Positions 18,452-28,610 of a DNA stretch of 64,000 bases are shown here, one piece after another (positions within the stretch are counted from its first letter, which is position 1; the number at the start of each line of letters is the position of its first letter). The notes under the pieces were generated by a model, which was given only the letters and a program-made list of their open reading frames with translations, was not told the DNA's origin and did no database searches. Origin of the DNA: a virus. Lineage: Duplodnaviria; Caudoviricetes. The translations under genes and the position numbers were made by a program. The stretch lies in the IMG/VR virus record IMGVR_UViG_3300026493_000002. One strand, given 5' to 3'.

Positions 18452-19127
18452 TATTGACGAACTGGAAGACGAAGTAGACGAACAGCAGATTCAGGTCGAG
18501 CCGATCAAGATTCGCCCGCTCCCTGATGATCGCAAGAAGCTGCTGATCGCACGTGGTGTCCCCGGCCAGGACCTCATGACTGACGGTGTTCCGGTGTTCG
18601 ATGCCGTGGACTACTTGGTGCGCATGGAGCCTGACGTTCCGGGCGTGACCAACAAGACCATCAGTGCCAAGAAACAGATGGACAAGCTGCGCACCATCCT
18701 GCGCAATCCGCTGCGTCGTCAGCCCTACACGATTGCCATTGGGTCCTATCCGAGCGATGCGCGTGCGAAGTATCTGGCGCACACGTTGTTCAACGCCGCG
18801 ATCACCCAGTATCAGAAGGATCGTCTGCGCTTCGGTGCCCGCGGTCTGCCGATGTGGCATCGCGTGTGGGGCAACTACAAGGACGCGCTGCGCGATGCTC
18901 CCGGTAAGGAGACGCCCAGCATGTTGTTCATCGCCAACATCCATGACGAGTCCACGAGTCTCAAGATCGAGAAGGTCCGTGACTTGTTGGAAATGTACTC
19001 CGACATTCCTCGCGTTGTCATCACCGGCGGCAGCGCACCGATCGACCTCTTCCAATACCGATTGTCCTATCCGCTGACGGCCGGCTTCTACGTTGGCCCG
19101 CCGAACCTGATCAAGGAGAACATCTGA
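18444..19127 (+). CDS. degenerate DnaC/IstB-like AAA+ protein
   Basis: GTG 18444 after GAGGAG; IAIGSYPSDARAKYLA (Walker A position), MLFIANI (Walker B position), KVRDLLEMY..IPRVVIT. Confidence 0.4.
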   Translation: MSDIDELEDEVDEQQIQVEPIKIRPLPDDRKKLLIARGVPGQDLMTDGVPVFDAVDYLVRMEPDVPGVTNKTISAKKQMDKLRTILRNPLRRQPYTIAIGSYPSDARAKYLAHTLFNAAITQYQKDRLRFGARGLPMWHRVWGNYKDALRDAPGKETPSMLFIANIHDESTSLKIEKVRDLLEMYSDIPRVVITGGSAPIDLFQYRLSYPLTAGFYVGPPNLIKENI

Positions 19128-20110
19128 TGCGCCTCGACCTTTCTCTCGAAGGCACCGCTGCCCAGAAGCGCCGCAAGAAAAAGAAAGCTGCGCCCGCCAA
19201 GGACTTGACCTTCACCGAGTCGATGGATGCTCTTGCCACCTTCGACGACGTGCTGCTGACCGGCCGATTGAACGACACGCAGATCACGGCCGAAGTACAG
19301 CAGCCGTGGGCACGCGCCGAACTGGTCGAAGGCGAAGTGCACCAAATGCTCCACATCGTGCCGCTGCGCGATATGCCGGCGGGCACTCTCCTGTACGTCA
19401 ACGGTCAGGTGCCCAACTTCAACGCGGCGACGCTGGTCAACGAGTTGCAGGAGCAGATGCGTCAGTTCCAGAACGCGGTCAACATCGTGCTGCTCATGCG
19501 CAACCAAGATATGCTGCTGGCGAATACGCTGCAGGCGGCTATCAATCGTTGGGCCACGGCCAACGCCGAGACGCTCCAGATCTTGGGCATCAACGCTGAT
19601 GACCTGTACCCGAAGTTCCCGACCGTCCAGGAAACGAAGCTCCGGGAAGGTGATACGGAAGTCTTCGATGAAGACCGGCAGGCCAAGATCGAACACGCCA
19701 AGGATGCCAGCGGCGTGATGCCCCGCATCCACGGCACCGAGTTCCTGATGACGCCGGAAGAAACGGTCGCATACGACGTGCCCGTGATCTTCGCCGCAGA
19801 CGTTATCGAGTTCGGCGACCTCATGAACATCAAGAAAGCCTTCAAGGGCCAGACGGTGTTCCTGTTCGAGTCGGGCATGTTCTTCGACGCCGATCCCGAG
19901 GGCCCCGATTTCTGGGACGTGATCTTCGACTCCCGTTCCGAGTGCAACATCGTTCCGATCTTCCTGCCGTCGGACGTCGAAGCGTGGGCCCAGCTGTTCG
20001 GCGGCAAGATGATGACGCGCTCCGATATCGCCACTCCCGGCTTTGAGAAGGGCGCCATCGTGTTGCGTCGCGGCCGGGTGACGAAAGACACCTTCGAGTT
20101 CACTACCTGA
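19127..20110 (+). CDS. hypothetical protein, polybasic N-terminus
   Basis: 327 aa, TGATG coupling, strong codon bias. Confidence 0.7.
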   Translation: MRLDLSLEGTAAQKRRKKKKAAPAKDLTFTESMDALATFDDVLLTGRLNDTQITAEVQQPWARAELVEGEVHQMLHIVPLRDMPAGTLLYVNGQVPNFNAATLVNELQEQMRQFQNAVNIVLLMRNQDMLLANTLQAAINRWATANAETLQILGINADDLYPKFPTVQETKLREGDTEVFDEDRQAKIEHAKDASGVMPRIHGTEFLMTPEETVAYDVPVIFAADVIEFGDLMNIKKAFKGQTVFLFESGMFFDADPEGPDFWDVIFDSRSECNIVPIFLPSDVEAWAQLFGGKMMTRSDIATPGFEKGAIVLRRGRVTKDTFEFTT

Positions 20111-20120
20111 GTACAGAGCA

Positions 20121-20315
20121 ATGTCTGACAAAACCCACGCACCGATGCCGACCTGCGACTGTCTTCCGTGCAGTCATGTGGAACGGGATCGCCTGCGCAA
20201 TCTGCTGAACAATCGGCCGGCGGTGAATGCCGGTCTGGAAAGTGCGTACGTCAAATGGAGCGGACAGGTGTACGAGTCCGACATGTTGGCACACGCTGGT
20301 ATCCGTCCCAACTAG
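20121..20315 (+). CDS. small hypothetical protein
   Basis: 64 aa, CDCLPC motif. Confidence 0.5.
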   Translation: MSDKTHAPMPTCDCLPCSHVERDRLRNLLNNRPAVNAGLESAYVKWSGQVYESDMLAHAGIRPN

Positions 20316-20322
20316 GTGAGTT

Positions 20323-20751
20323 ATGCGCCTCCACTTCAAAGCTGACAATCAGAACAAGCTGTTGCCGTTCAGTGTCGATCACTGGCAGCGCGTGTTCCTG
20401 CCATACGACAAGCTGATGGTGACTGCCGATTCGGTTGTCGAGGCACCCTCCGTGTTTGAACACTGCGAGCGCGTGGCTCAACGTACTGGTCTGGGCTGGG
20501 AACTGCCTTCGATTGAGACGTTGCAACTGATCGTGGACTTCACCAAGTATCAACCTGCGGCCGATAGCCGTTACTTCCGTTTTGAGCGTGGCTTCTTTTG
20601 GTCGTCCACGCCAACTCCGTGGAGTGACGGTCACCGCTTCGGCATTGAGTTCTTCACGGGCGAAGTGCGCTATCGGCAGATCACCGAGCAGGGAATGGCG
20701 CTTTCTGTGCTGAGGGATTTCCGCCCTCCGGCAGGCAAGGCCCGGCGTTAA
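20323..20751 (+). CDS. DUF1566/Lcl C-terminal domain protein
   Basis: WELPSIETLQLIVDFTKYQPAAD..YF...FFWSSTP matches the family pattern. Confidence 0.7.
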   Translation: MRLHFKADNQNKLLPFSVDHWQRVFLPYDKLMVTADSVVEAPSVFEHCERVAQRTGLGWELPSIETLQLIVDFTKYQPAADSRYFRFERGFFWSSTPTPWSDGHRFGIEFFTGEVRYRQITEQGMALSVLRDFRPPAGKARR

Positions 20752-20752
20752 A

Positions 20753-20760
20753 TCTGTAAA
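20753..20760 (+). promoter_or_regulatory. TCTGTAAA candidate phage promoter heading the modification operon
   Basis: Intergenic, 56 nt before the ParB-like ATG. Confidence 0.65.
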
Positions 20761-20815
20761 TACCAAACGTTATCAACGAGGCCTTAGCGCCAACCACTAC
20801 AAGGCAAACGACAAG

Positions 20816-21634
20816 ATGGGCAAGCACCTGAAACTTACGGACCTGCGTGAGGCCGAATACAACCCGCGAATCATCAGCGCCAAGCGACTGGAGAATCTCC
20901 AGAAGTCCATGCTGCGCTTCGGTGACCTCTCGGGCGTCGTGTTCAACGAGTCCACCAAGAAGCTCGTTTCCGGCCACCAGCGTTTGAAGACGATCCGCGA
21001 AGCCGGCCTCGAAACCGAAATCGTGACGTCCAAGCGCAAGGACAAGCACGGCACCGTGGCAGAAGGCTACATCATCGCCAAGACCCCGGACGGCGAGATT
21101 CGTCTGCCGCTGCGCGTCGTCAACTGGGCCGACAAGAAGGCTGAAATCGCGGCGAACATCGCAGCCAATGCGCACGGCGGTGACTTCGACCGTACCAAGC
21201 TCGGCGCGCTGTTGGTCAAGCTCGAAAAGGGCAAGGCGTTCGACATTGACACGCTGGGCCTCGACCCGCTGTCTCTGCGTGGCCTGATGCAGGTCATGCC
21301 GACGCTGGGCACCAAGGGTGAAGGCGGCGGTGAAGAAGACGGCGAGAGCTTCCCGGAGTACGGCGAAGACAGCTTCGACCTGCATCACACCTGCCCCAAG
21401 TGCAAGTTCCGTTTCAGCGCATCGGCTTCTTCCAAGAAGGCGCCGGGCCCGAAGGAGAACAAGCAGGTCGAGGCAGCCAAGAAGACCAAGGCTGCGAAGA
21501 AGGATGCCGAGAAGAAGGCGTCCAAGAAGTCCAAGAGCGACGACGATGCACCGGTGAAGAAAAAGAAGTCCAAGAACAAGGACGAGCCGGCGAAGAAGTC
21601 GAAGAAGGACAAGTTCAAGAAGCTGCGTAAGTAA
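20816..21634 (+). CDS. ParB/Srx-like domain protein with zinc ribbon and Lys-rich tail
   Basis: LREAEYNPRIIS...FGDLSGVVFN...LVSGHQRL ParB N-terminal pattern; FPEYGED..HHTCPKCKFRF. Confidence 0.8.
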   Translation: MGKHLKLTDLREAEYNPRIISAKRLENLQKSMLRFGDLSGVVFNESTKKLVSGHQRLKTIREAGLETEIVTSKRKDKHGTVAEGYIIAKTPDGEIRLPLRVVNWADKKAEIAANIAANAHGGDFDRTKLGALLVKLEKGKAFDIDTLGLDPLSLRGLMQVMPTLGTKGEGGGEEDGESFPEYGEDSFDLHHTCPKCKFRFSASASSKKAPGPKENKQVEAAKKTKAAKKDAEKKASKKSKSDDDAPVKKKKSKNKDEPAKKSKKDKFKKLRK

Positions 21635-21647
21635 CCGGAGAACAGAC

Positions 21648-22529
21648 ATGGCGCGTAAGGCCCAGAACAAGATCGCAGTGCCGGCATTCAAACGCCGTAA
21701 GTCGGCAAGCGATGCCAAACCGCGCATTCGTCTGCGCTTGACCAAGAGCCTGGAGAAGCACAAGGACGAGCCGTTGGCTATCCTGTTGTCCTCGGGCCTC
21801 GACTCCAATGCCGTGCTGTTCTCGGCATTGGAGCTCGGCATGAAGCCGCATATCTACAGCTTCACGCTCGATGACCGCGAGGCTCGTGACTTCCGTATCG
21901 CTCGACAGACGGCCGAGACCTTCGGCCTAAAGTTCACACCGATCTACCTTCCGACCGACCTCAAGAAGGTCAAGAAGGGCCTGATCAGTACCGTGAAGGA
22001 GCTCGACGCCAGCGGCAAGTCGGCCATCGAATGTCTGTACGCTTTCAAGTACGCGGTCGACTCCATCAAGGAGAAGAACATCGTCAGCGGTCTGGCGGCC
22101 GACATTTACTTCGTGCTGTCCAAGAAGGGCTGTATGCACTACAAGGACTGCGCAGACGACTACCGCATTCCGCGACACGCTACGGTCAAGGGTCCCACGT
22201 CGCAGACTTCCAAGCTGCGTGCCTACTGCAGGAAAAAGGGCAAGCGCTGGTTGAGTCCGTGGCTGACCGATCAGATGATGGACGAGTTCCGTGGTACCAG
22301 CTGGGATGACGTGAACAAGCCCAAGCAGAAGAACCCGATCCACGTGCAGTACCCGGAGTTCCTGGCTCACGCCAAGACCTACCAACACACCAACCTGCAG
22401 CTGGGCGACAGCGGTATCTCGGCACTGTTCACGCAGCTGCTGGACGATCCTCACTGGAATCCCGAGCGCCGGTTCAAGAGCATGACGGGCGTGTACAACC
22501 GCCTCGTTCGTGGAGAGATTACCAAATGA
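21648..22529 (+). CDS. asparagine-synthetase-like ATP-dependent amide ligase (CmoY-like), no glutaminase domain
   Basis: PP-loop AILLSSGLDS; DFRIARQTAETFGL; VSGLAADIYF; SPWLTDQMM; all AsnB synthetase-domain features. Confidence 0.8.
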   Translation: MARKAQNKIAVPAFKRRKSASDAKPRIRLRLTKSLEKHKDEPLAILLSSGLDSNAVLFSALELGMKPHIYSFTLDDREARDFRIARQTAETFGLKFTPIYLPTDLKKVKKGLISTVKELDASGKSAIECLYAFKYAVDSIKEKNIVSGLAADIYFVLSKKGCMHYKDCADDYRIPRHATVKGPTSQTSKLRAYCRKKGKRWLSPWLTDQMMDEFRGTSWDDVNKPKQKNPIHVQYPEFLAHAKTYQHTNLQLGDSGISALFTQLLDDPHWNPERRFKSMTGVYNRLVRGEITK

Positions 22530-23131
22530 TCTTTGAACTGAGCCGCAAAGGCTACAGGATCGAGAAGCTGGAGAAGAGCGCACGCGGTGTCGTCGCTCTC
22601 CTCCCTATCTTCGACTACCTGCGAACGTTGCCCGGCATGAGCCTGTGCACGGATCTGGATGCCCAGATCTCATACGTCGATCAGGAGGACCTCGACCTCT
22701 ACGTGGCCCACAATTTGGACTCGATCTTCGACGTTCCCGCAGAGGGACAAGGCGTGATCGCCATAGCGGGCGTCAAGAACCACCGGTCGTACAGCTACGA
22801 GCCGCGCCCGTACGTGTTCAACGAACCGGGCAGCTTCGGCATGAAGCACGTTGCTCGCGCCGCCGAACTGTGTTGCCTTGCGGTGATGCCCAACTTCCGG
22901 GGCAAGGGGCTTTGCCGCTCACTCACTCTACATCGCCTCGACAAGATGCCCGACAACCGTACGGCAGTCATTGAGTTGCGGCCGAGTGCTGACAGCCTCA
23001 ACCAGCTTTCGCGTGAGCCGGAAGCGCACGCATCTACGACCAGTGTGCAGCGCATCGCGCAGCGCCTGGGATTCAAGTACGAGGGCCGCGCTCTCGCAGA
23101 CAACAGCATGGTGCTGGTAGCACCGTTCTAA
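22526..23131 (+). CDS. GNAT-family N-acetyltransferase
   Basis: ELCCLAVMPNFRGKGLCRSL acetyl-CoA motif A; RLGFKYEG motif B; ATGA overlap. Confidence 0.8.
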   Translation: MIFELSRKGYRIEKLEKSARGVVALLPIFDYLRTLPGMSLCTDLDAQISYVDQEDLDLYVAHNLDSIFDVPAEGQGVIAIAGVKNHRSYSYEPRPYVFNEPGSFGMKHVARAAELCCLAVMPNFRGKGLCRSLTLHRLDKMPDNRTAVIELRPSADSLNQLSREPEAHASTTSVQRIAQRLGFKYEGRALADNSMVLVAPF

Positions 23132-23142
23132 GGACTTCAACC

Positions 23143-24039
23143 GTGCAAATGACCAATGTAGACCTCATTAGCGCCCCGTTTGGTGAGGGCGCTGGTGTTC
23201 TGGGATCCGAGAACGGCCCGAGTATGCTGGTTAAGCTCGGACTCTGCTCGGCGATCGGGCACGAAGGACTGTGCATCAATCAGTTCCACGAAATCAAGGC
23301 GAAGGTGCATCCGTATGTGCCTCAGCCCAGCCTCAAGTGCGGCGGTCACACGATTGCCTACAACGATGCGATCTACGAACGCTGCATCCTGAGTCTGCGC
23401 GACGACAGGTTCCCGCTGATGCTCGCCGGCGATCATTCGCTCTCCATCGGTTCGATCCTCGCCGCCAGCGACTACGCGAAGGAGAATCGGAAGAAGTTCA
23501 TCTGCCTGTACATCGACGCCCACACGGACTTCAACACTCCGGAGACGACGATGACGGGCAACACCCACGGCATGACGCTTGCCGCTGCCGGTGGCCTGTT
23601 CCTCGATCTTGCGGTTGAGGCCTCGGAGAACCACCTGGACCTGTCCAGCATCATCTATTACGGTGCGCGTGACATTGACCACGAGGAGCAGAAGCTGCTG
23701 GATGAACATCCGGAGATTACCGTCATCGACATGAAGGACCAGTTCCACCTTCTGACGCTGATGGATCTGCTGGACGAACGTCTCGACGAGGACACCCACA
23801 TCCACGTCAGCTTCGATGTGGACAGTCTGGATCCGAATCACTTCCTCGCTACTGGCCTGAACGTGCCGAACGGTCTCCTTCCACAGGAAGTCGAGGCCCT
23901 CTTCCAGGATCTGCGTGCCAGCGGCGCGGTCAAATCCCTTGACGTGGTTGAGTACAACCCGTCCAAGGACAACGCCACTTTTGAAGGCGGCCTGATGGTC
24001 AACACCATCGTGTCCCGTCTCTTCCACAACGCCCGGTGA
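23143..24039 (+). CDS. arginase (binuclear Mn ureohydrolase)
   Basis: GDHS, DAHTDFNTPETTMTGNTHG, GARDIDHEE, SFDVDSLDP, DVVEYNP: all Mn ligands and arginase-type substrate residues. Confidence 0.9.
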   Translation: MQMTNVDLISAPFGEGAGVLGSENGPSMLVKLGLCSAIGHEGLCINQFHEIKAKVHPYVPQPSLKCGGHTIAYNDAIYERCILSLRDDRFPLMLAGDHSLSIGSILAASDYAKENRKKFICLYIDAHTDFNTPETTMTGNTHGMTLAAAGGLFLDLAVEASENHLDLSSIIYYGARDIDHEEQKLLDEHPEITVIDMKDQFHLLTLMDLLDERLDEDTHIHVSFDVDSLDPNHFLATGLNVPNGLLPQEVEALFQDLRASGAVKSLDVVEYNPSKDNATFEGGLMVNTIVSRLFHNAR

Positions 24040-25052
24040 CAGACGTGTCCAAGAAAATCTTCAAGATGCCTACGATGAAGGCAATCAACGCCAAGGAGAA
24101 GCACTTCAAGGGTATCAGCACGTTCAGTGGCTGCGGTGGCAGTTCGACTGGCGTGAAGATGGCCGGCGTCAAGGTGCTGGTGGCAACCGAGTTCATCAAG
24201 CCTGCGATTGAGACCTACAAGGCGAACCACAAGGGCACCAAAGTGCTGGGTGATGACATTCGCAAGGTCGACTGGGAAGCTGTGCGCAAGGAGTTCAAGC
24301 TCAAGCGCGGTCAGCTGGACTTCTCCGAGGGCAGTCCGCCGTGCAAGTCGTTCTCCACTGCTGGCACCAAGAGTGAAGGCTGGGGCGAGGAAAAGAAGTA
24401 CTCCGAGAACGTCAGTCAGCGTACCGACGACCTGTTCTACGAGGAAATGCGCAAGCTGTCCGAGTTCATGCCCAAGACCTTTGTGTGCGAGAACGTCAAG
24501 GGCATGGTCGAAGGTGACGCCAAGGGTTACTTCCTTGAAATCCTCCGTGACCTCAAGGCGGTCGGCTACAACGTCCGTGCGCAGGTGTTGAATGCTGCGC
24601 GTCTCGGTGTTCCGCAGGCCCGTGAGCGCATCATCTTCGTTGGCGTCCGTGACGATCTGGCGAAGAAGGGCCACATGCCCGTATTCCCCAAGCCGCAGAA
24701 GCACGAAATCTACGTCACTGACGTGCTGCCGAAGATCGCCTACCTCAAGTCGAAGAAGAACGGCATCATGCAGTACGTGCCGGCTACCATCCCGAGTCCG
24801 ACCATTGTTGCATCCGATGGCCTGAACTCGGAGACTGCGGGCTTCTCGACCGGCGGCTTCATCGAGACCATTGAGGGCGAACGTCGCAAGTACACCATCG
24901 AGGAGTTGAAGAAAATCTTCACCTTCCCCGAGGACTTCGTGTTCACCGGCAACTATCGCCAGCAGTTCGAGCGCATCGGCCGTTCGGTTCCGCCGTTGAT
25001 GATGTACCACGTCGTCCGCGAAATCCGTAGGCAGATCCTCGAAAAGCTGTAA
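24036..25052 (+). CDS. C5-cytosine DNA methyltransferase fold, predicted carboxymethyltransferase (CmoX-like)
   Basis: FSGCGG (I), GSPPCKSFS (IV), ENVKG (VI), QARERIIFVG (VIII); motif X reads IGRSVPP instead of GNSV. Confidence 0.85.
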   Translation: MTDVSKKIFKMPTMKAINAKEKHFKGISTFSGCGGSSTGVKMAGVKVLVATEFIKPAIETYKANHKGTKVLGDDIRKVDWEAVRKEFKLKRGQLDFSEGSPPCKSFSTAGTKSEGWGEEKKYSENVSQRTDDLFYEEMRKLSEFMPKTFVCENVKGMVEGDAKGYFLEILRDLKAVGYNVRAQVLNAARLGVPQARERIIFVGVRDDLAKKGHMPVFPKPQKHEIYVTDVLPKIAYLKSKKNGIMQYVPATIPSPTIVASDGLNSETAGFSTGGFIETIEGERRKYTIEELKKIFTFPEDFVFTGNYRQQFERIGRSVPPLMMYHVVREIRRQILEKL

Positions 25053-25053
25053 A
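25047..25053 (+). promoter_or_regulatory. CTGTAAA candidate promoter overlapping the stop codon
   Basis: Motif includes the TAA of the transferase gene, 29 nt before the next GTG. Confidence 0.4.
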
Positions 25054-25081
25054 CCATCCTCACATCCAATCGGAGATTCCC

Positions 25082-25726
25082 GTGAGCGAAGAACAGAACG
25101 AAACGGCTGTCGTTGTGCCGCCGGAACCCAAGACCATCACGGTGCTGATTCTCGGCACCGATCGCAACGTCGGCCAGGACAAGCTCGGTGAGCAGCTGGC
25201 CGCACAGTTGATCGCTGGTGGCATCAAGGTGCAGCACACGCCGACCGATGACTACGCGCGCATCCGCGCTGGCGAACTGCCCAGCCTGATCGAGAGCCAC
25301 CTGAGCAAGAAGCACGCCATCAACGTGCTGTCCTACAACGGTGCGCTGTCGCATCCCGAGACCGGCCCCGTGGCCCTCGCGCTGCTGTACACGGTGAAGC
25401 CCAGCCTCGTCATCATGTGCCACGCGGGCTTTCGCGGTACGCAGGACGGTGTCAGCGTGCAGGGCGTTGGCCTTGCATCTGAAATCGCCAACACACTGCT
25501 GTTCGCTCGCCGCTTCAATCCCGATGCGAAGCTGGCGGGCATCAATCTGCATGGCGAAGGCCAGACCGAGGCCGACCTCAAGACCACGATTGACGAGACC
25601 TATCCCCTGGGTCAGTCGTTCGGCGTCGAAGTGTTCTCCTTCGACAGTGGCTCCGACGATTCGGAACTGCCCGAGGAGTTCGTTGAATCCATTGACGTGC
25701 TGGCACGAAAGGCGAAGTCACGATGA
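25082..25726 (+). CDS. DUF1611-like (DgcN C-terminal) protein with degenerate P-loop
   Basis: ILGTDRNVGQ vs family GTDcavGK; YNGALSHP vs EGQGSLxHP; LLYTVKPSLVIMCH vs LLxGsxPDxxILCH; KLAGINL. Confidence 0.6.
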   Translation: MSEEQNETAVVVPPEPKTITVLILGTDRNVGQDKLGEQLAAQLIAGGIKVQHTPTDDYARIRAGELPSLIESHLSKKHAINVLSYNGALSHPETGPVALALLYTVKPSLVIMCHAGFRGTQDGVSVQGVGLASEIANTLLFARRFNPDAKLAGINLHGEGQTEADLKTTIDETYPLGQSFGVEVFSFDSGSDDSELPEEFVESIDVLARKAKSR

Positions 25727-26571
25727 ACGCGATTACTGATACGGAGTTCCAGGACCAGGGCGTCGTCTCGCCTCCGTGCGTCAAGAAGGTCGATGACCAC
25801 CAGCCGGGCGCGAAGTGGGAGTTCAATGCCGACGTCGCCGTCAAGTTCGATGACATGCTGGGCCGCTCGATTCCGGGCTACCTGCAGATGCGCGAACTGG
25901 CGTACGAACTGGGCAAGAAGTTCATCCCCGATCAGAACGTCAACGTGATCGACCTGGGCGCTTCGCGTGGTGAGTCGGCTTCGGCCTTCATCGACACGCC
26001 TGCGTTCTCGGGCGCCAACTACTTCCTCAGCGAAGTCAGCGAGCCGATGCTGGATCAGATGCGTGAGCGCTGGAACGGCGTGTCGAACGTCCATCCGGTC
26101 AGCTACGACCTGCGGCGCAAGTACACCGATATCGCCTACGCGATCCACGATCCCGTGCGCAACATGGTGAACAACGGCAAGATACCAAGCACGCCGTACA
26201 CGCTGCATCCGACGACGCTGGTGCAGGCTATCCTGACCCTGATCTTCGTGCCGATCAACTTCCGGCAGGGCATCCTCAAGGGTGTCCACGAGGGCTTGGC
26301 TCCGGGCGGCGCGTTCATCATGGTCGAGAAGGTCCTGGGCGACAGCGCCGAAATGCAGGACCTGTTGGTCGATGCCTACCACGATCACAAGCATCGTCAC
26401 GGCTACAGCTGGGAAGACATTGAGCGCAAGCGTGCGTCTCTGGAGGGCGTGCAGGTTCCCGTGCGCCACGAGGAGAACATCGCCATGCTGCGCTCGGCCG
26501 GCTTCCGCAACGTCGAAACCTTCTGGCGCCATCTGAACTTCGTCGGGTACATCTGCATCAAGGACCAGTGA
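25723..26571 (+). CDS. cmoA: carboxy-S-adenosyl-L-methionine synthase-like
   Basis: WEFNADVAVKFDDMLGRSIPGY, DLGASRG, GLAPGGAFIMVEK, GYSWEDIERKRASL align with E. coli CmoA, including the KR arginine (codon 26431-26433). Confidence 0.88.
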   Translation: MNAITDTEFQDQGVVSPPCVKKVDDHQPGAKWEFNADVAVKFDDMLGRSIPGYLQMRELAYELGKKFIPDQNVNVIDLGASRGESASAFIDTPAFSGANYFLSEVSEPMLDQMRERWNGVSNVHPVSYDLRRKYTDIAYAIHDPVRNMVNNGKIPSTPYTLHPTTLVQAILTLIFVPINFRQGILKGVHEGLAPGGAFIMVEKVLGDSAEMQDLLVDAYHDHKHRHGYSWEDIERKRASLEGVQVPVRHEENIAMLRSAGFRNVETFWRHLNFVGYICIKDQ

Positions 26572-26641
26572 CCTCTTAGAGGCTCACCGCGACAGTCTAC
26601 AACGGGCCTTCTCAGGAAGGCCCCATGAAGAGGGCTTCACT

Positions 26642-27115
26642 ATGTTCGGTTGGCGTAACATCCTGACCGCACCGAAGAACAAACGTATCCTCGTGTGCGG
26701 CAACAACTGGTCCGACTCGCAGGGTCCATTGAAGGAGCCGGTGATTGCTCAGTGGAATGAAAGTCGTGAACGCTGGGAGACTGGCACCGGCATTCTGGGT
26801 ACTTACGGCATTCGCCCGACCCACTGGCAGCCGCTCCCTGAGGTCTACTCCACGTCGTCGATGGATCCGAAGCACATGATCTACGTTGACACGGGTCGCG
26901 TCCTGAGCATTCACGCCGCGGTGAAGGTCGTGCTGGCGTACGAGGGTGTTCCGTTCGACGTGGTGACTGGCCCTCACGGTGCAGGCCTGCTGGTCGAACC
27001 CCAGCATCTGGACAAGATGAATCGCGTTGCCAATGATTGGGGCGGGCTGCGTGACTCCATTCCACGCGCGCTGTTCAACGCTACCGTGGACTACCAACAG
27101 AGGAACAAGCCGTGA
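26642..27115 (+). CDS. DUF551-like phage protein
   Basis: WRNILTAPKNKRIL...W...PTHWQPLP. Confidence 0.65.
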   Translation: MFGWRNILTAPKNKRILVCGNNWSDSQGPLKEPVIAQWNESRERWETGTGILGTYGIRPTHWQPLPEVYSTSSMDPKHMIYVDTGRVLSIHAAVKVVLAYEGVPFDVVTGPHGAGLLVEPQHLDKMNRVANDWGGLRDSIPRALFNATVDYQQRNKP

Positions 27116-27249
27116 GCGACACCCTGAAATGCGACTACTGCGGCTACGTGTACCAGCTCGGTCTCAGCCTGTACAAGGCCGGCGACAAGTGCCCGAAGTG
27201 CAACGGTCGCGGCATTCTCTGTTCCAAAGGCTCGCGAGGTAACCCGTGA
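27112..27249 (+). CDS. 45 aa zinc-ribbon protein (not in the ORF track)
   Basis: GTG..TGA overlapping both neighbours by GTGA; CDYC...CPKC. Confidence 0.65.
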   Translation: MSDTLKCDYCGYVYQLGLSLYKAGDKCPKCNGRGILCSKGSRGNP

Positions 27250-28025
27250 GCAGCCACGTTCTTCGAGTAGTGGACAACCCCACACTTCCGCTCGTTCCGG
27301 AATTCTCGGTCGCCGTCGGTCATTCCATCGGTGACTTCGGAGCGCAGGCCAGCAGTCTCGGAGGCATCGTCTATGCAACGTTGCTTAAGAAGAGCTCCAT
27401 TCCGAATGAGGAGTCGGCGCGTCGTCTGCACGCTTCGATATCCAAGCTGTACACGGAAGATCTGGATCGACCGATAGCGGGCATGACCGCTCAGCTTGAT
27501 GACTACAGCATTCCTCTCTTGCGCATGTCTAGCGCCGAGATTGACCAGTTGGTATATCTCGGATTCAATCCGATCCGCTGCGCAATCCAGTTCGGCGTTG
27601 TTCCGTGGGCGCAGCATACGTCTCATGGGTACAGCATCCAGCTGCTGCGCCTCTTGGTGACGGCTATTCATGCCATTTCAGTACGGGCGGGGCGTGCCTG
27701 CGAAGCCTGTTCGCTGGAAGGACCTGCACGCAATCACGCCCTGTACCACCACTCTGCTGAGGTCTTCATGGAGCTCCAGCAGTTCAGGCTTTCGCATATG
27801 TTCCAACTGGTAGCAGGCAGACACGGAGCGCACGGTATCGCCATTATGCTTGAGCGCGACGCCCCGCCGTTCGGAAAGAACTTCCTTGAGGAGGCTCTGT
27901 GCATAAGCACGGACGTCATGGAGGTCGGTAACGTTTTCGGAACCCTCCACCAGTTGCAGATCCTGCATGAACTGTGGCCGAGCATGTTCACTGGTGGCCC
28001 GCAAATCTGTAAAGGGAATCGGTAG
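27246..28025 (+). CDS. hypothetical protein
   Basis: 259 aa ORF, weaker codon bias. Confidence 0.55.
   Translation: MSSHVLRVVDNPTLPLVPEFSVAVGHSIGDFGAQASSLGGIVYATLLKKSSIPNEESARRLHASISKLYTEDLDRPIAGMTAQLDDYSIPLLRMSSAEIDQLVYLGFNPIRCAIQFGVVPWAQHTSHGYSIQLLRLLVTAIHAISVRAGRACEACSLEGPARNHALYHHSAEVFMELQQFRLSHMFQLVAGRHGAHGIAIMLERDAPPFGKNFLEEALCISTDVMEVGNVFGTLHQLQILHELWPSMFTGGPQICKGNR
28006..28013 (+). promoter_or_regulatory. TCTGTAAA candidate phage promoter
   Basis: At the end of the upstream gene, 33 nt before ATG 28046. Confidence 0.55.
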
Positions 28026-28045
28026 TTTCAGCTGAGGAAATATCC

Positions 28046-28498
28046 ATGCGCGAATTGAAGTTGCTACGCAAGCGCGTAAAGGCAATGTGGAAAATGGAAG
28101 AGGAGTTGTCGCCTCCGGAGCGCAAGCTCCATCAGTGGCAATTCCTCTCGACCCAGACGGGCATCCCGTATCTCGTAGGCAAGGGTGACGCAAACACCTT
28201 CTTCTACAAGATCGGCGAGAAGGGCGAAATGCAGTACGTCATGCCCGACAAGATGTTTGCCATCTTGGACAAGTGGTGCGGCGAGAAGTACGTCATGTAC
28301 GCCATCGCTCGCAACTCCAACGTGAAGAAGGCCAAGCGCCAATCGAAGGTCCTCGCCGACCTGTTGAAGCGCACCAACTCCAAGTATGCGGACTACCACA
28401 TCGTGGGTATCACCGCCGACAGCCGAGTGGACAAGCTGTACTCGATGAAGACAGGCCTGACGGCCAACCAGTGGGTGCCGTTGAAGGTCAAGCCGTAG
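28046..28498 (+). CDS. hypothetical basic protein
   Basis: GAGG RBS, strong codon bias. Confidence 0.7.
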   Translation: MRELKLLRKRVKAMWKMEEELSPPERKLHQWQFLSTQTGIPYLVGKGDANTFFYKIGEKGEMQYVMPDKMFAILDKWCGEKYVMYAIARNSNVKKAKRQSKVLADLLKRTNSKYADYHIVGITADSRVDKLYSMKTGLTANQWVPLKVKP

Positions 28499-28610
28499 AT
28501 GCAGTGTGACGTGTTCAGAAACCGGTGCGCACGTTCTGCCCGGAAACACTAATTTCTGAACACGTTTGGCACACCAAGGTGAGCCTCTTCCACACTACAG
28601 GTACTTCCCC

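Follow-up and report, generated by a model that had tools for sequence, protein, structure and literature searches.

The stretch of DNA analysed here (the window: 64,000 nucleotides of the IMG/VR virus record IMGVR_UViG_3300026493_000002) belongs to an uncultured soil jumbo phage of the PaBG/Lu11-like type, whose DNA polymerase shows 44% identity with its counterpart in Pseudomonas phage PaBG and 41-42% with those of Lu11, HRDY3 and Erwinia jumbo phages. Seven tightly packed genes on the + strand, spanning 20816-26571, include an ATP-dependent amide ligase, a GNAT-fold protein and an arginase that stand side by side (Table 1), and this trio, the subject of our study, is very probably part of a DNA-modification pathway. 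The preliminary description of this DNA, made from its letters alone, had placed an arginase and a GNAT between a ligase and a transferase at 21648-24039, within a pathway based on 5-carboxymethylcytosine (5cxmC). The three coupled open reading frames on the + strand proved real, and the pathway frame is supported, with CmoA, CmoX and CmoY homologues in one operon and the ligase-GNAT-arginase order shared by at least five lineages; as to placement, the GNAT and the arginase are indeed there, but the interval takes in the ligase as well, and the transferase, CmoX, starts only at 24036. Stop and start codons overlap at three junctions (ligase/GNAT, ATGA; arginase/CmoX, GTGA; DUF1611_C/CmoA, ATGA), and the 11 nt between the GNAT and arginase genes contain AAGGA. 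No promoter- or terminator-like signal rose above chance inside the operon, matches in the region being fewer than expected, and the sole promoter-like match of the region lies downstream of the operon.

Table 1. Genes of the operon in window coordinates, with the assignments suggested by profile matches and predicted folds.
Gene product	Position	Strand	Length (aa)	Basis of assignment and remarks
ParB_N-like protein, first gene of the operon	20816..21634	+	272	phrog_620 ParB-like, E 2.4e-32; Pfam ParB_N weak
CmoY-type ATP-dependent amide ligase	21648..22529	+	293	PF00733 Asn_synthase, E 6.9e-9; QueC-like PP-loop; phrog_26038, E 5.6e-58
GNAT-fold acyltransferase	22526..23131	+	201	Predicted fold; subfamily found next to CmoY-like ligases
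Conventional-type arginase	23143..24039	+	298	PF00491, E 4.5e-44; TIGR01229, 180.7 bits; predicted reaction L-arginine to L-ornithine + urea
CmoX-type DNA cytosine C5-carboxymethyltransferase	24036..25052	+	338	PF00145, E 2.5e-53
DUF1611_C P-loop-like protein	25082..25726	+	214	PF07755, E 1.1e-12
CmoA-type carboxy-SAM synthase	25723..26571	+	282	TIGR00740, E 1.6e-33; phrog_4752, E 1.2e-63

The known frame for this operon comes from the cyanophage S-B43, in which CmoA makes carboxy-S-adenosylmethionine (carboxy-SAM), CmoX writes 5cxmC and CmoY, a homologue of asparagine synthetase, ligates glycine to the 5cxmC carboxyl using ATP (Yang et al., Nat Commun, Dec 2025, PMC12783734). The same study found 2,251 such ligases, several clusters of which differ in pocket residues and probably use amines other than glycine, and reported frequent ParBc neighbours around CmoX (PMC12783734). 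With S-B43 the window shares a carboxy-SAM synthase, a C5-methyltransferase bearing the SPPC motif and the carboxy-SAM arginine, and a glutaminase-less ligase resembling asparagine synthetase, all in one operon, as well as the ParB-like neighbour noted for many contigs. The window CmoX, 36% identical to SpCmoX and 80% to the PaBG homologue, carries both features that define the family, namely SPPC (as GSPPC, residues 99-103) and the equivalent of R350 (Arg316 in ERIGRSVPP, aligned with SpCmoX R350 in ERVGRMVPP), and the window CmoA, 62% identical to that of PaBG and 30% to SpCmoA, reaches 116 bits with TIGR00740, which is below the cut-off of 193. In contrast with the window, S-B43 has no arginase, GNAT or DUF1611_C, and its ligase is just 30% identical to the window ligase, which is strongly basic, has a basic N-terminal extension and is predicted to use an arginine-derived amine, not glycine. 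Neither PMC12783734 nor its supplements mention an arginase, a GNAT or DUF1611; a search of the literature on arginases or ureohydrolases in phage DNA hypermodification found nothing, and a comparative paper on jumbo phages does not discuss this cassette.

PaBG is the nearest cultured relative, and its own cassette consists of a ParB-like protein, a cytosine methylase, CmoA, a 150-aa protein, an asparagine synthase and a 203-aa protein. The window ParB-like protein is 66% identical to the one adjoining the PaBG cytosine methylase, in keeping with the closeness of CmoX, CmoA and the DNA polymerase, whereas the PaBG ligase is 38% identical to that of the window and PaBG has neither an arginase nor a detectable GNAT. 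Compared with PaBG, the ligase-GNAT-arginase block looks like a swapped-in cassette.

The trio is a conserved unit. Among the related contigs that we compared (L001-L005, L009, L011, L012, L014 and L017-L020, all identities being given relative to the window proteins), the order ligase-GNAT-arginase is identical in at least five diverged soil-contig lineages: the window with its near-identical copy L004 (GNAT 99%, arginase 98%, ligase 99.7%), L011/L012/L020 (72%, 74% and 96-98%, in the same order), L005 (58%, 52% and 89%), L001-L003 (44%, 50% and 93.5%) and L014 (42%, 38% and 87%). CmoX adjoins the trio wherever the contig extends, the trio arginases are monophyletic (support 100/100) and separated by a long branch from those of bacteria, and the ratios of nonsynonymous to synonymous substitution rates (dN/dS) indicate purifying selection on all three genes. 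The module is also rare in public data: a search of IMG/VR with arginase patterns and a GNAT alignment gave no relative of the trio, a scan of JGI metagenomes added just two short contigs, both of the 72% lineage, and a megablast of the operon against GenBank phages gave no match. Three further contigs (L017, L018 and L019) encode ligases 74%, 68% and 53% identical to that of the window and have no arginase, and the same GNAT subfamily follows the ligase in each (hidden Markov model E-values 1.4e-17, 1.2e-11 and 1e-4). The ligase-GNAT pair is therefore older and wider, the arginase being a later addition in the clade defined by ligase identity of at least 87%, and the role of the GNAT should be independent of the arginase. 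In PaBG, Yersinia fHe-Yen9-02 and Erwinia SNUABM_5, ligases of 36-41% identity are followed by unrelated proteins of 190-216 aa, so that the place downstream of the ligase seems to be a slot in which accessory genes vary.

Divergence is unequal within this one operon. Across L001, L005, L011 and L014 the ligase is 87-98% identical and CmoX 77-95%, as against 61-76% for CmoA, 42-72% for the GNAT, 38-74% for the arginase and 34% for DUF1611_C; the synonymous divergence (dS) of the ligase, 0.48-0.89, is about half that of its neighbours (0.8-1.75). Low ligase dS together with such unequal identities makes recombination or cassette exchange likely, besides stronger constraint.

The ligase matches the synthetase half of asparagine synthase alone (TIGR01536 positions 225-365 of 517), with the PP-loop SSGLDS present and the glutaminase domain absent, and for this reason it needs an external amine, exactly as the preliminary description had argued. 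It is 30% identical to SpCmoY of S-B43 over 82% of its length (E 7e-25), and in the window, as in related loci, it shares an operon with CmoX and CmoA, the linkage characteristic of CmoY. The protein is very basic (isoelectric point (pI) 9.8 and net charge +21 in the window; pI 9.7-9.8 and +19 to +21 across lineages) and slow to change, being 87-98% identical across the trio lineages with dN/dS of 0.03-0.15. An N-terminal extension of about 35 residues, rich in lysine and arginine (window 21648-21752), is absent from the SpCmoY, PaBG and Staphylococcus phage ligases and might act as an arm that binds DNA or as a signal for targeting. A predicted ligase-GNAT complex scored 0.01, which carries no weight either way.

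For the arginase, the two motifs quoted in the preliminary description were found (DAHTDFNTPETTMTGNTHG and GARDIDHEE), and its reading of the residues as arginase-type rather than agmatinase-type, with all Mn ligands in place, is borne out by the motifs and the family scores. The TIGR01229 rocF profile gives 180.7 bits, against 57.1 for the agmatinase profile TIGR01230 (cut-off 174.3) and 52 for HutG, so that arginase lies more than 120 bits above every other ureohydrolase subfamily, and the motif GNTHG is likewise of the arginase type. The Mn ligands H98, D125, H127, D129, D225 and D227 (human arginase H101, D124, H126, D128, D232 and D234) are invariant in our alignment A1 and also align with Thermus arginase. 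Kept as well are the backbone-binding and catalytic residues N131, T136, T138, N140, H142, D177, D179, E182 and E270, equivalent to human N130, T135, S137 (here Thr), N139, H141, D181, D183, E186 and E277, and the substrate-gripping residues are conserved in all trio lineages with one exception, a Gly-to-Arg change beside N139 in P0009. Of the PDB sequence matches, the best 46 are all arginases or N-omega-hydroxy-arginine amidinohydrolases, with agmatinases far below. Superposition of the AF2 model (pLDDT 85.6) on conventional arginases, namely those of B. caldovelox (2cev, Z 38.6), Bacillus, rat and human, covers about 289 of its 298 residues with Z 36-38.6 and a root-mean-square deviation of about 2.0 A; its top 50 structural neighbours are all arginases, and the modelled fold is plain and full length, with no added domain. 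With conventional arginases (RocF/arginase-1; 2cev, human ARG1) the phage protein thus has in common the fold, the Mn ligands, H141, E277 and the residues binding the amino and carboxyl groups; it differs in its low identity (about 25-37%), in its missing C-terminal tail, present in bacterial arginases, and in being encoded by a phage within a DNA-modification operon. It is acidic (pI 4.8 and net charge -23 in the window; pI 4.8-5.5 and -10 to -23 across lineages), as are bacterial arginases (median pI 5.3), and evolves at dN/dS of 0.20-0.48. That an arginase in such an operon is unusual, as had been remarked, is confirmed by the lack of any PHROG family match and by the 50,697 GenBank phage records, which yielded just two matches, in unannotated Staphylococcus records at 30% identity.

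The predicted structure of the third protein confirms a GNAT fold: the AF2 model (pLDDT 87.6) matched many GNATs at Z 13-14.7, and the ESM Atlas points to GNATs as well (feature score 0.96, TM 0.6-0.7). At the sequence level the window protein reaches 18.8 bits with Pfam Acetyltransf_1 against a gathering threshold of 20.7, its 42% homologue P0127 passes with 26.8, and the L019 neighbour carries PF00583. Motif A (R/Q-x-x-G-x-G/A) reads RGKGLC in the window, RGLGLS in L005, and RGQGW and RGYGLG in the arginase-less relatives; pI ranges from 5.2 to 7.7 across lineages and dN/dS from 0.22 to 0.39. The subfamily is tiny, with 7 hits among 1.8 billion representative proteins, and each relative with readable neighbours adjoins a CmoY-like ligase; GenBank phages (50,697 records) gave no match, and there is no PHROG family. 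The longest structural alignment is with AruF (1yle; 179 of 201 residues, Z 14.0), which also has the best Foldseek E-value, and the SpeG polyamine acetyltransferases are among the top matches, these rows being tied on score. AruF/AstA and SpeG, likewise of the GNAT fold, are acylating enzymes whose target is an amine on arginine, ornithine or a polyamine. We rejected the likeness as proof of specificity, since Z is tied across dozens of GNATs and profile-to-PDB hits all have E > 0.01, and we take this structural resemblance as a lead only. Capping of a free amine, the role that the preliminary description gave to the GNAT, is plausible. AruF/AstA moreover differ in lacking a significant sequence match (AstA PF04958 had no hit for the window GNAT, and faint ones, E 0.07-0.09, for P0129 and P0131) and in being two-domain proteins of about 340 aa, as opposed to a single domain of 201 aa.

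Most likely, the trio is a conserved add-on to the CmoA/CmoX 5cxmC pathway that sets which amine decorates the DNA. We put forward, tentatively, a scheme in which free ornithine comes from the arginase, is joined to 5cxmC as an amide by the ligase and is acylated on its second amine by the GNAT. CmoA would first make carboxy-SAM and CmoX would write 5cxmC on the phage DNA, as homology to the proven S-B43 enzymes suggests, and a conventional Mn2 arginase acting on free L-arginine would then raise the ornithine pool. The basic, putatively DNA-binding CmoY-type ligase would next adenylate the 5cxmC carboxylate and form an amide with ornithine, and the GNAT would acylate the other amine of ornithine with an acyl-CoA, probably acetyl-CoA, acting on ornithine that is still free or, once ligation is done, on the DNA adduct. 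Such acylation would fix which nitrogen is linked and could prevent one diamine from bridging two activated sites. The predicted final nucleoside is the N-acetyl-ornithine amide of 5-carboxymethyl-deoxycytidine (5cxmdC), with [M+H]+ 442.193, or, if the GNAT step were left out, the ornithine amide, with [M+H]+ 400.183; the arginine amide, at a computed [M+H]+ of 442.205, is nominally isobaric with the N-acetyl-ornithine amide, from which it differs by 11 mDa. For the other candidate nucleosides the computed [M+H]+ values are 286.103 (5cxmdC), 343.125 (glycine amide), 356.193 (putrescine amide) and 398.203 (N-acetylputrescine amide). The window contains 88.7 GC sites per kb, and if CmoX targets GC as SpCmoX does, each genome copy would consume tens of thousands of amines, which would be a reason for carrying a supply enzyme. 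TilS, a PP-loop enzyme, and TiaS, the synthases of lysidine and agmatidine, act on tRNA and offer a parallel in known chemistry, using ATP to join a basic amino acid or amine to a cytosine in nucleic acid; they differ in modifying C2 of tRNA C34 directly and not a C5 carboxymethyl handle on DNA. By analogy, this likeness, as with CmoA, may reflect RNA-modification logic reused.

The substrate of the arginase is probably free arginine, because even lineages that have diverged to 38% identity keep the residues gripping the alpha-amino and alpha-carboxyl groups, and because the phage arginase shows no OspR-type adaptations. Whether ornithine itself or a product downstream of it is then ligated seems to us an even matter. 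The operon is also split by charge and rate, the ligase (+19 to +21) and CmoX (pI 9.5, +15) being basic and slow-evolving, and the arginase, CmoA (pI 5.8), DUF1611_C and, largely, the GNAT being acidic or neutral and fast, a division that fits DNA-acting as opposed to metabolite-handling enzymes. Several observations weigh against our scheme. The argument from charge is weak, given that SpCmoY acts on DNA at pI 5.8. The GNAT subfamily works with arginase-less ligases, and the amine may differ between clades; its motif A is degenerate in two lineages (RGQHFA in L001, QGHKVA in P0127). The evolution of the arginase and the GNAT is much faster than that of the ligase, and such speed is unusual in enzymes at the core of a pathway. 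The arginase score is below the TIGR01229 equivalog cut-off of 227.6, and the equivalent of Thr246 (GGLTYRE loop) is replaced by Leu246 in the window and by Arg in the 72-76% lineage, so that kinetics or specificity may differ; it stays Thr in P0007, P0008 and P0009, and the loop preceding this position reads TGLNV instead of GTGT.

The preliminary description had left two routes side by side, a supply of free ornithine and the trimming of arginine on the DNA, and of these the former is favoured on the strength of the retained backbone-binding residues, the plain fold and the acidic charge. For trimming on the DNA, which we consider unlikely, the ligase would attach L-arginine by its alpha-amine to 5cxmC, the arginase would remove the guanidino group in situ and the GNAT would acetylate the freed delta-amine. 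The conserved gene order and coupling apply to this route too, and the chemistry has a precedent in clavulanate synthesis, where proclavaminate amidinohydrolase acts after beta-lactam synthetase and the guanidino group serves as a protecting group: here, too, an asparagine-synthetase homologue and an arginase-family enzyme work in one pathway, and the amine is masked until late. In that case, however, the substrates are small molecules, not DNA, and the amidinohydrolase is agmatinase-like and only a distant match to the phage enzyme (1gq6, E 9.7e-8). Amino acids appended to phage DNA are known to be processed, as in thymidine hypermodification, and this also speaks for trimming, as does the departure from bacterial arginases, throughout the phage clade, of the Thr246 position and its surrounding loop. 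An arginase that acts on a macromolecule does exist, OspR of the landornamide pathway (PDB 8BRP), which as an arginase-family tailoring enzyme creates ornithine and is the only such precedent. In this peptide arginase E277, the proton shuttle and almost all of the backbone-binding residues are gone, the pocket is shallow and a dimerisation domain has been added (PMC10028609). The phage arginase, in contrast, keeps all the residues that OspR lost, among them the D181, D183 and E186 equivalents and the alpha-carboxylate binders in all lineages, and its fold is the conventional one, no domain having been added. N-alpha-substituted arginine is no substrate for conventional arginases (PMC10028609, citing its reference 33). 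A net charge of -10 to -23, with an acidic mouth to the cleft, would be poor for DNA binding, and the presence of the GNAT beside arginase-less ligases argues in the same direction.

Two further readings are each somewhat less probable than trimming and about equal to one another. In one, ornithine would pass to a host ornithine decarboxylase and the ligase would attach putrescine or, after a SpeG-like GNAT, N-acetylputrescine, giving a putrescinyl-type amide of 5cxmC. Phages are known to contain putrescinyl bases (alpha-putrescinylthymine in phiW-14), the GNAT has SpeG spermidine/diamine acetyltransferases among its best structural matches, and mono-acetylation of a diamine would be expected to prevent cross-links; yet those matches are tied with dozens of other GNATs, no decarboxylase was found in the operon or noted among the neighbouring genes examined, and the route would depend on a host enzyme. 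The published ligase clusters, moreover, mostly bind an alpha-amino acid carboxylate (PMC12783734), and by analogy the window ligase may do so too. In the other reading, the arginase and the GNAT would be hitch-hiking auxiliary metabolic or host-takeover genes, for arginine depletion or for the acetylation of polyamines or amino acids, and the ligase would use an amine from the host, e.g. glycine. Both are acidic, fast-evolving enzymes of the small-molecule type, and the ligase is, after all, 30% identical to the glycine-using SpCmoY. Against this stand the order of the trio, unchanged from ligase to CmoX in at least five lineages and accompanied by overlapping codons, the arginase clade that is seen solely beside GNAT and ligase wherever the contig extends, and a GNAT subfamily of 7 relatives among 1.8 billion whose readable neighbourhoods all hold a CmoY-like ligase. 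The least probable reading, a ureohydrolase for homoarginine, canavanine, N-omega-hydroxyarginine or the like, or a poor catalyst kept for binding, would suit the score below the TIGR01229 cut-off, the long branch from bacterial arginases, the replacement of the Thr246 equivalent in two lineages and the N-omega-hydroxy-arginine amidinohydrolases among the PDB hits (E about 1e-19), but it meets the retention of all catalytic and backbone-binding residues, the exclusively arginase identity of the 50 nearest structures and the margin of more than 120 bits over every other subfamily. Our scheme and these four rivals together leave part of the probability unassigned.

Relative to published work, we describe an arginase- and GNAT-extended form of the CmoA/CmoX/CmoY pathway, with a trio order held in at least five lineages and one arginase clade. 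Glycine is so far the only adduct known on the 5cxmC carboxyl handle, the amines of other ligase clusters having been left open (PMC12783734), and our scheme predicts a second, larger and arginine-derived adduct, the ornithine or N-acetyl-ornithine amide. As far as our literature search goes, this is the first case found of a phage arginase probably recruited to DNA modification. If free ornithine is indeed ligated, the product would be a new natural DNA base, so far undescribed; phage amino-acid catabolism would be coupled to the supply of a modification donor, and the ligase would accept a functionalised, amine-bearing side chain, which could be useful for the enzymatic labelling of DNA. Were trimming on the DNA to be true instead, this would be the first ureohydrolase known to act on nucleic acid, and DNA hypermodification would be using guanidine as a protecting group. 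That relatives without an arginase have the ligase-GNAT pair suggests that acylated diamino-acid adducts form a wider family.

The genes around the trio offered further observations. In L005 the CmoX homologue (L005:2362-4263) holds an in-frame insert of about 377 aa at L005:2638-3768, with Cys first, directly after SPP, His-Asn last and the catalytic Cys following (SPP|CFPAGE...AVHN|CKSFS); judged by these residues, it is a typical putative intein, placed exactly at the catalytic cysteine. The 715-position profile phrog_36001 matches CmoX at its positions 460-697, which suggests that intein-bearing relatives exist in known phages. Proteins of about 150 aa that match nothing in Pfam and are 31-35% identical in pairs (L009:4464-4916, L017:7338-7793 and L018:8205-8657) form a conserved family, found alongside CmoA/CmoY in PaBG and in arginase-less, GNAT-bearing contigs. 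At L019:4938-8060 the 53% ligase and its GNAT stand without an adjacent C5-methyltransferase homologue, the upstream gene encoding a 353-aa protein with a faint ATLF hit; perhaps the pair can also act in a different setting, or the gene for CmoX lies elsewhere. The gene after the cassette in L001, a contig of 152 kb, encodes a 400-aa protein bearing a Tad2-like (Thoeris anti-defence 2) domain (L001:11794-12996, E 3.8e-10); as this domain match indicates, a putative anti-defence gene adjoins the DNA-modification operon.

The operon region is present in contigs of seven soil metatranscriptome libraries. In four of these, window 19000-28500 occurs with no differences, in contigs of 5-74 kb and at a word depth of 18-107, and the phage is abundant in those four samples; contigs of up to 74 kb may be carried-over DNA and are hence no proof of transcription. 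The DUF1611_C protein, encoded between CmoX and CmoA, is acidic (pI 4.95) and has a degenerate sequence, GTDRNVGQD, at the Walker A position. It is found also in L004, L011, L012 and L020, is annotated beside the ligase in Dickeya phage AD1, and is 34% identical between lineages whose ligases share 98%. Its sole functional lead is a weak match to DgcN, a D-glutamate N-acetyltransferase, from which the protein may be a candidate for a second acyl-transfer step of the pathway.

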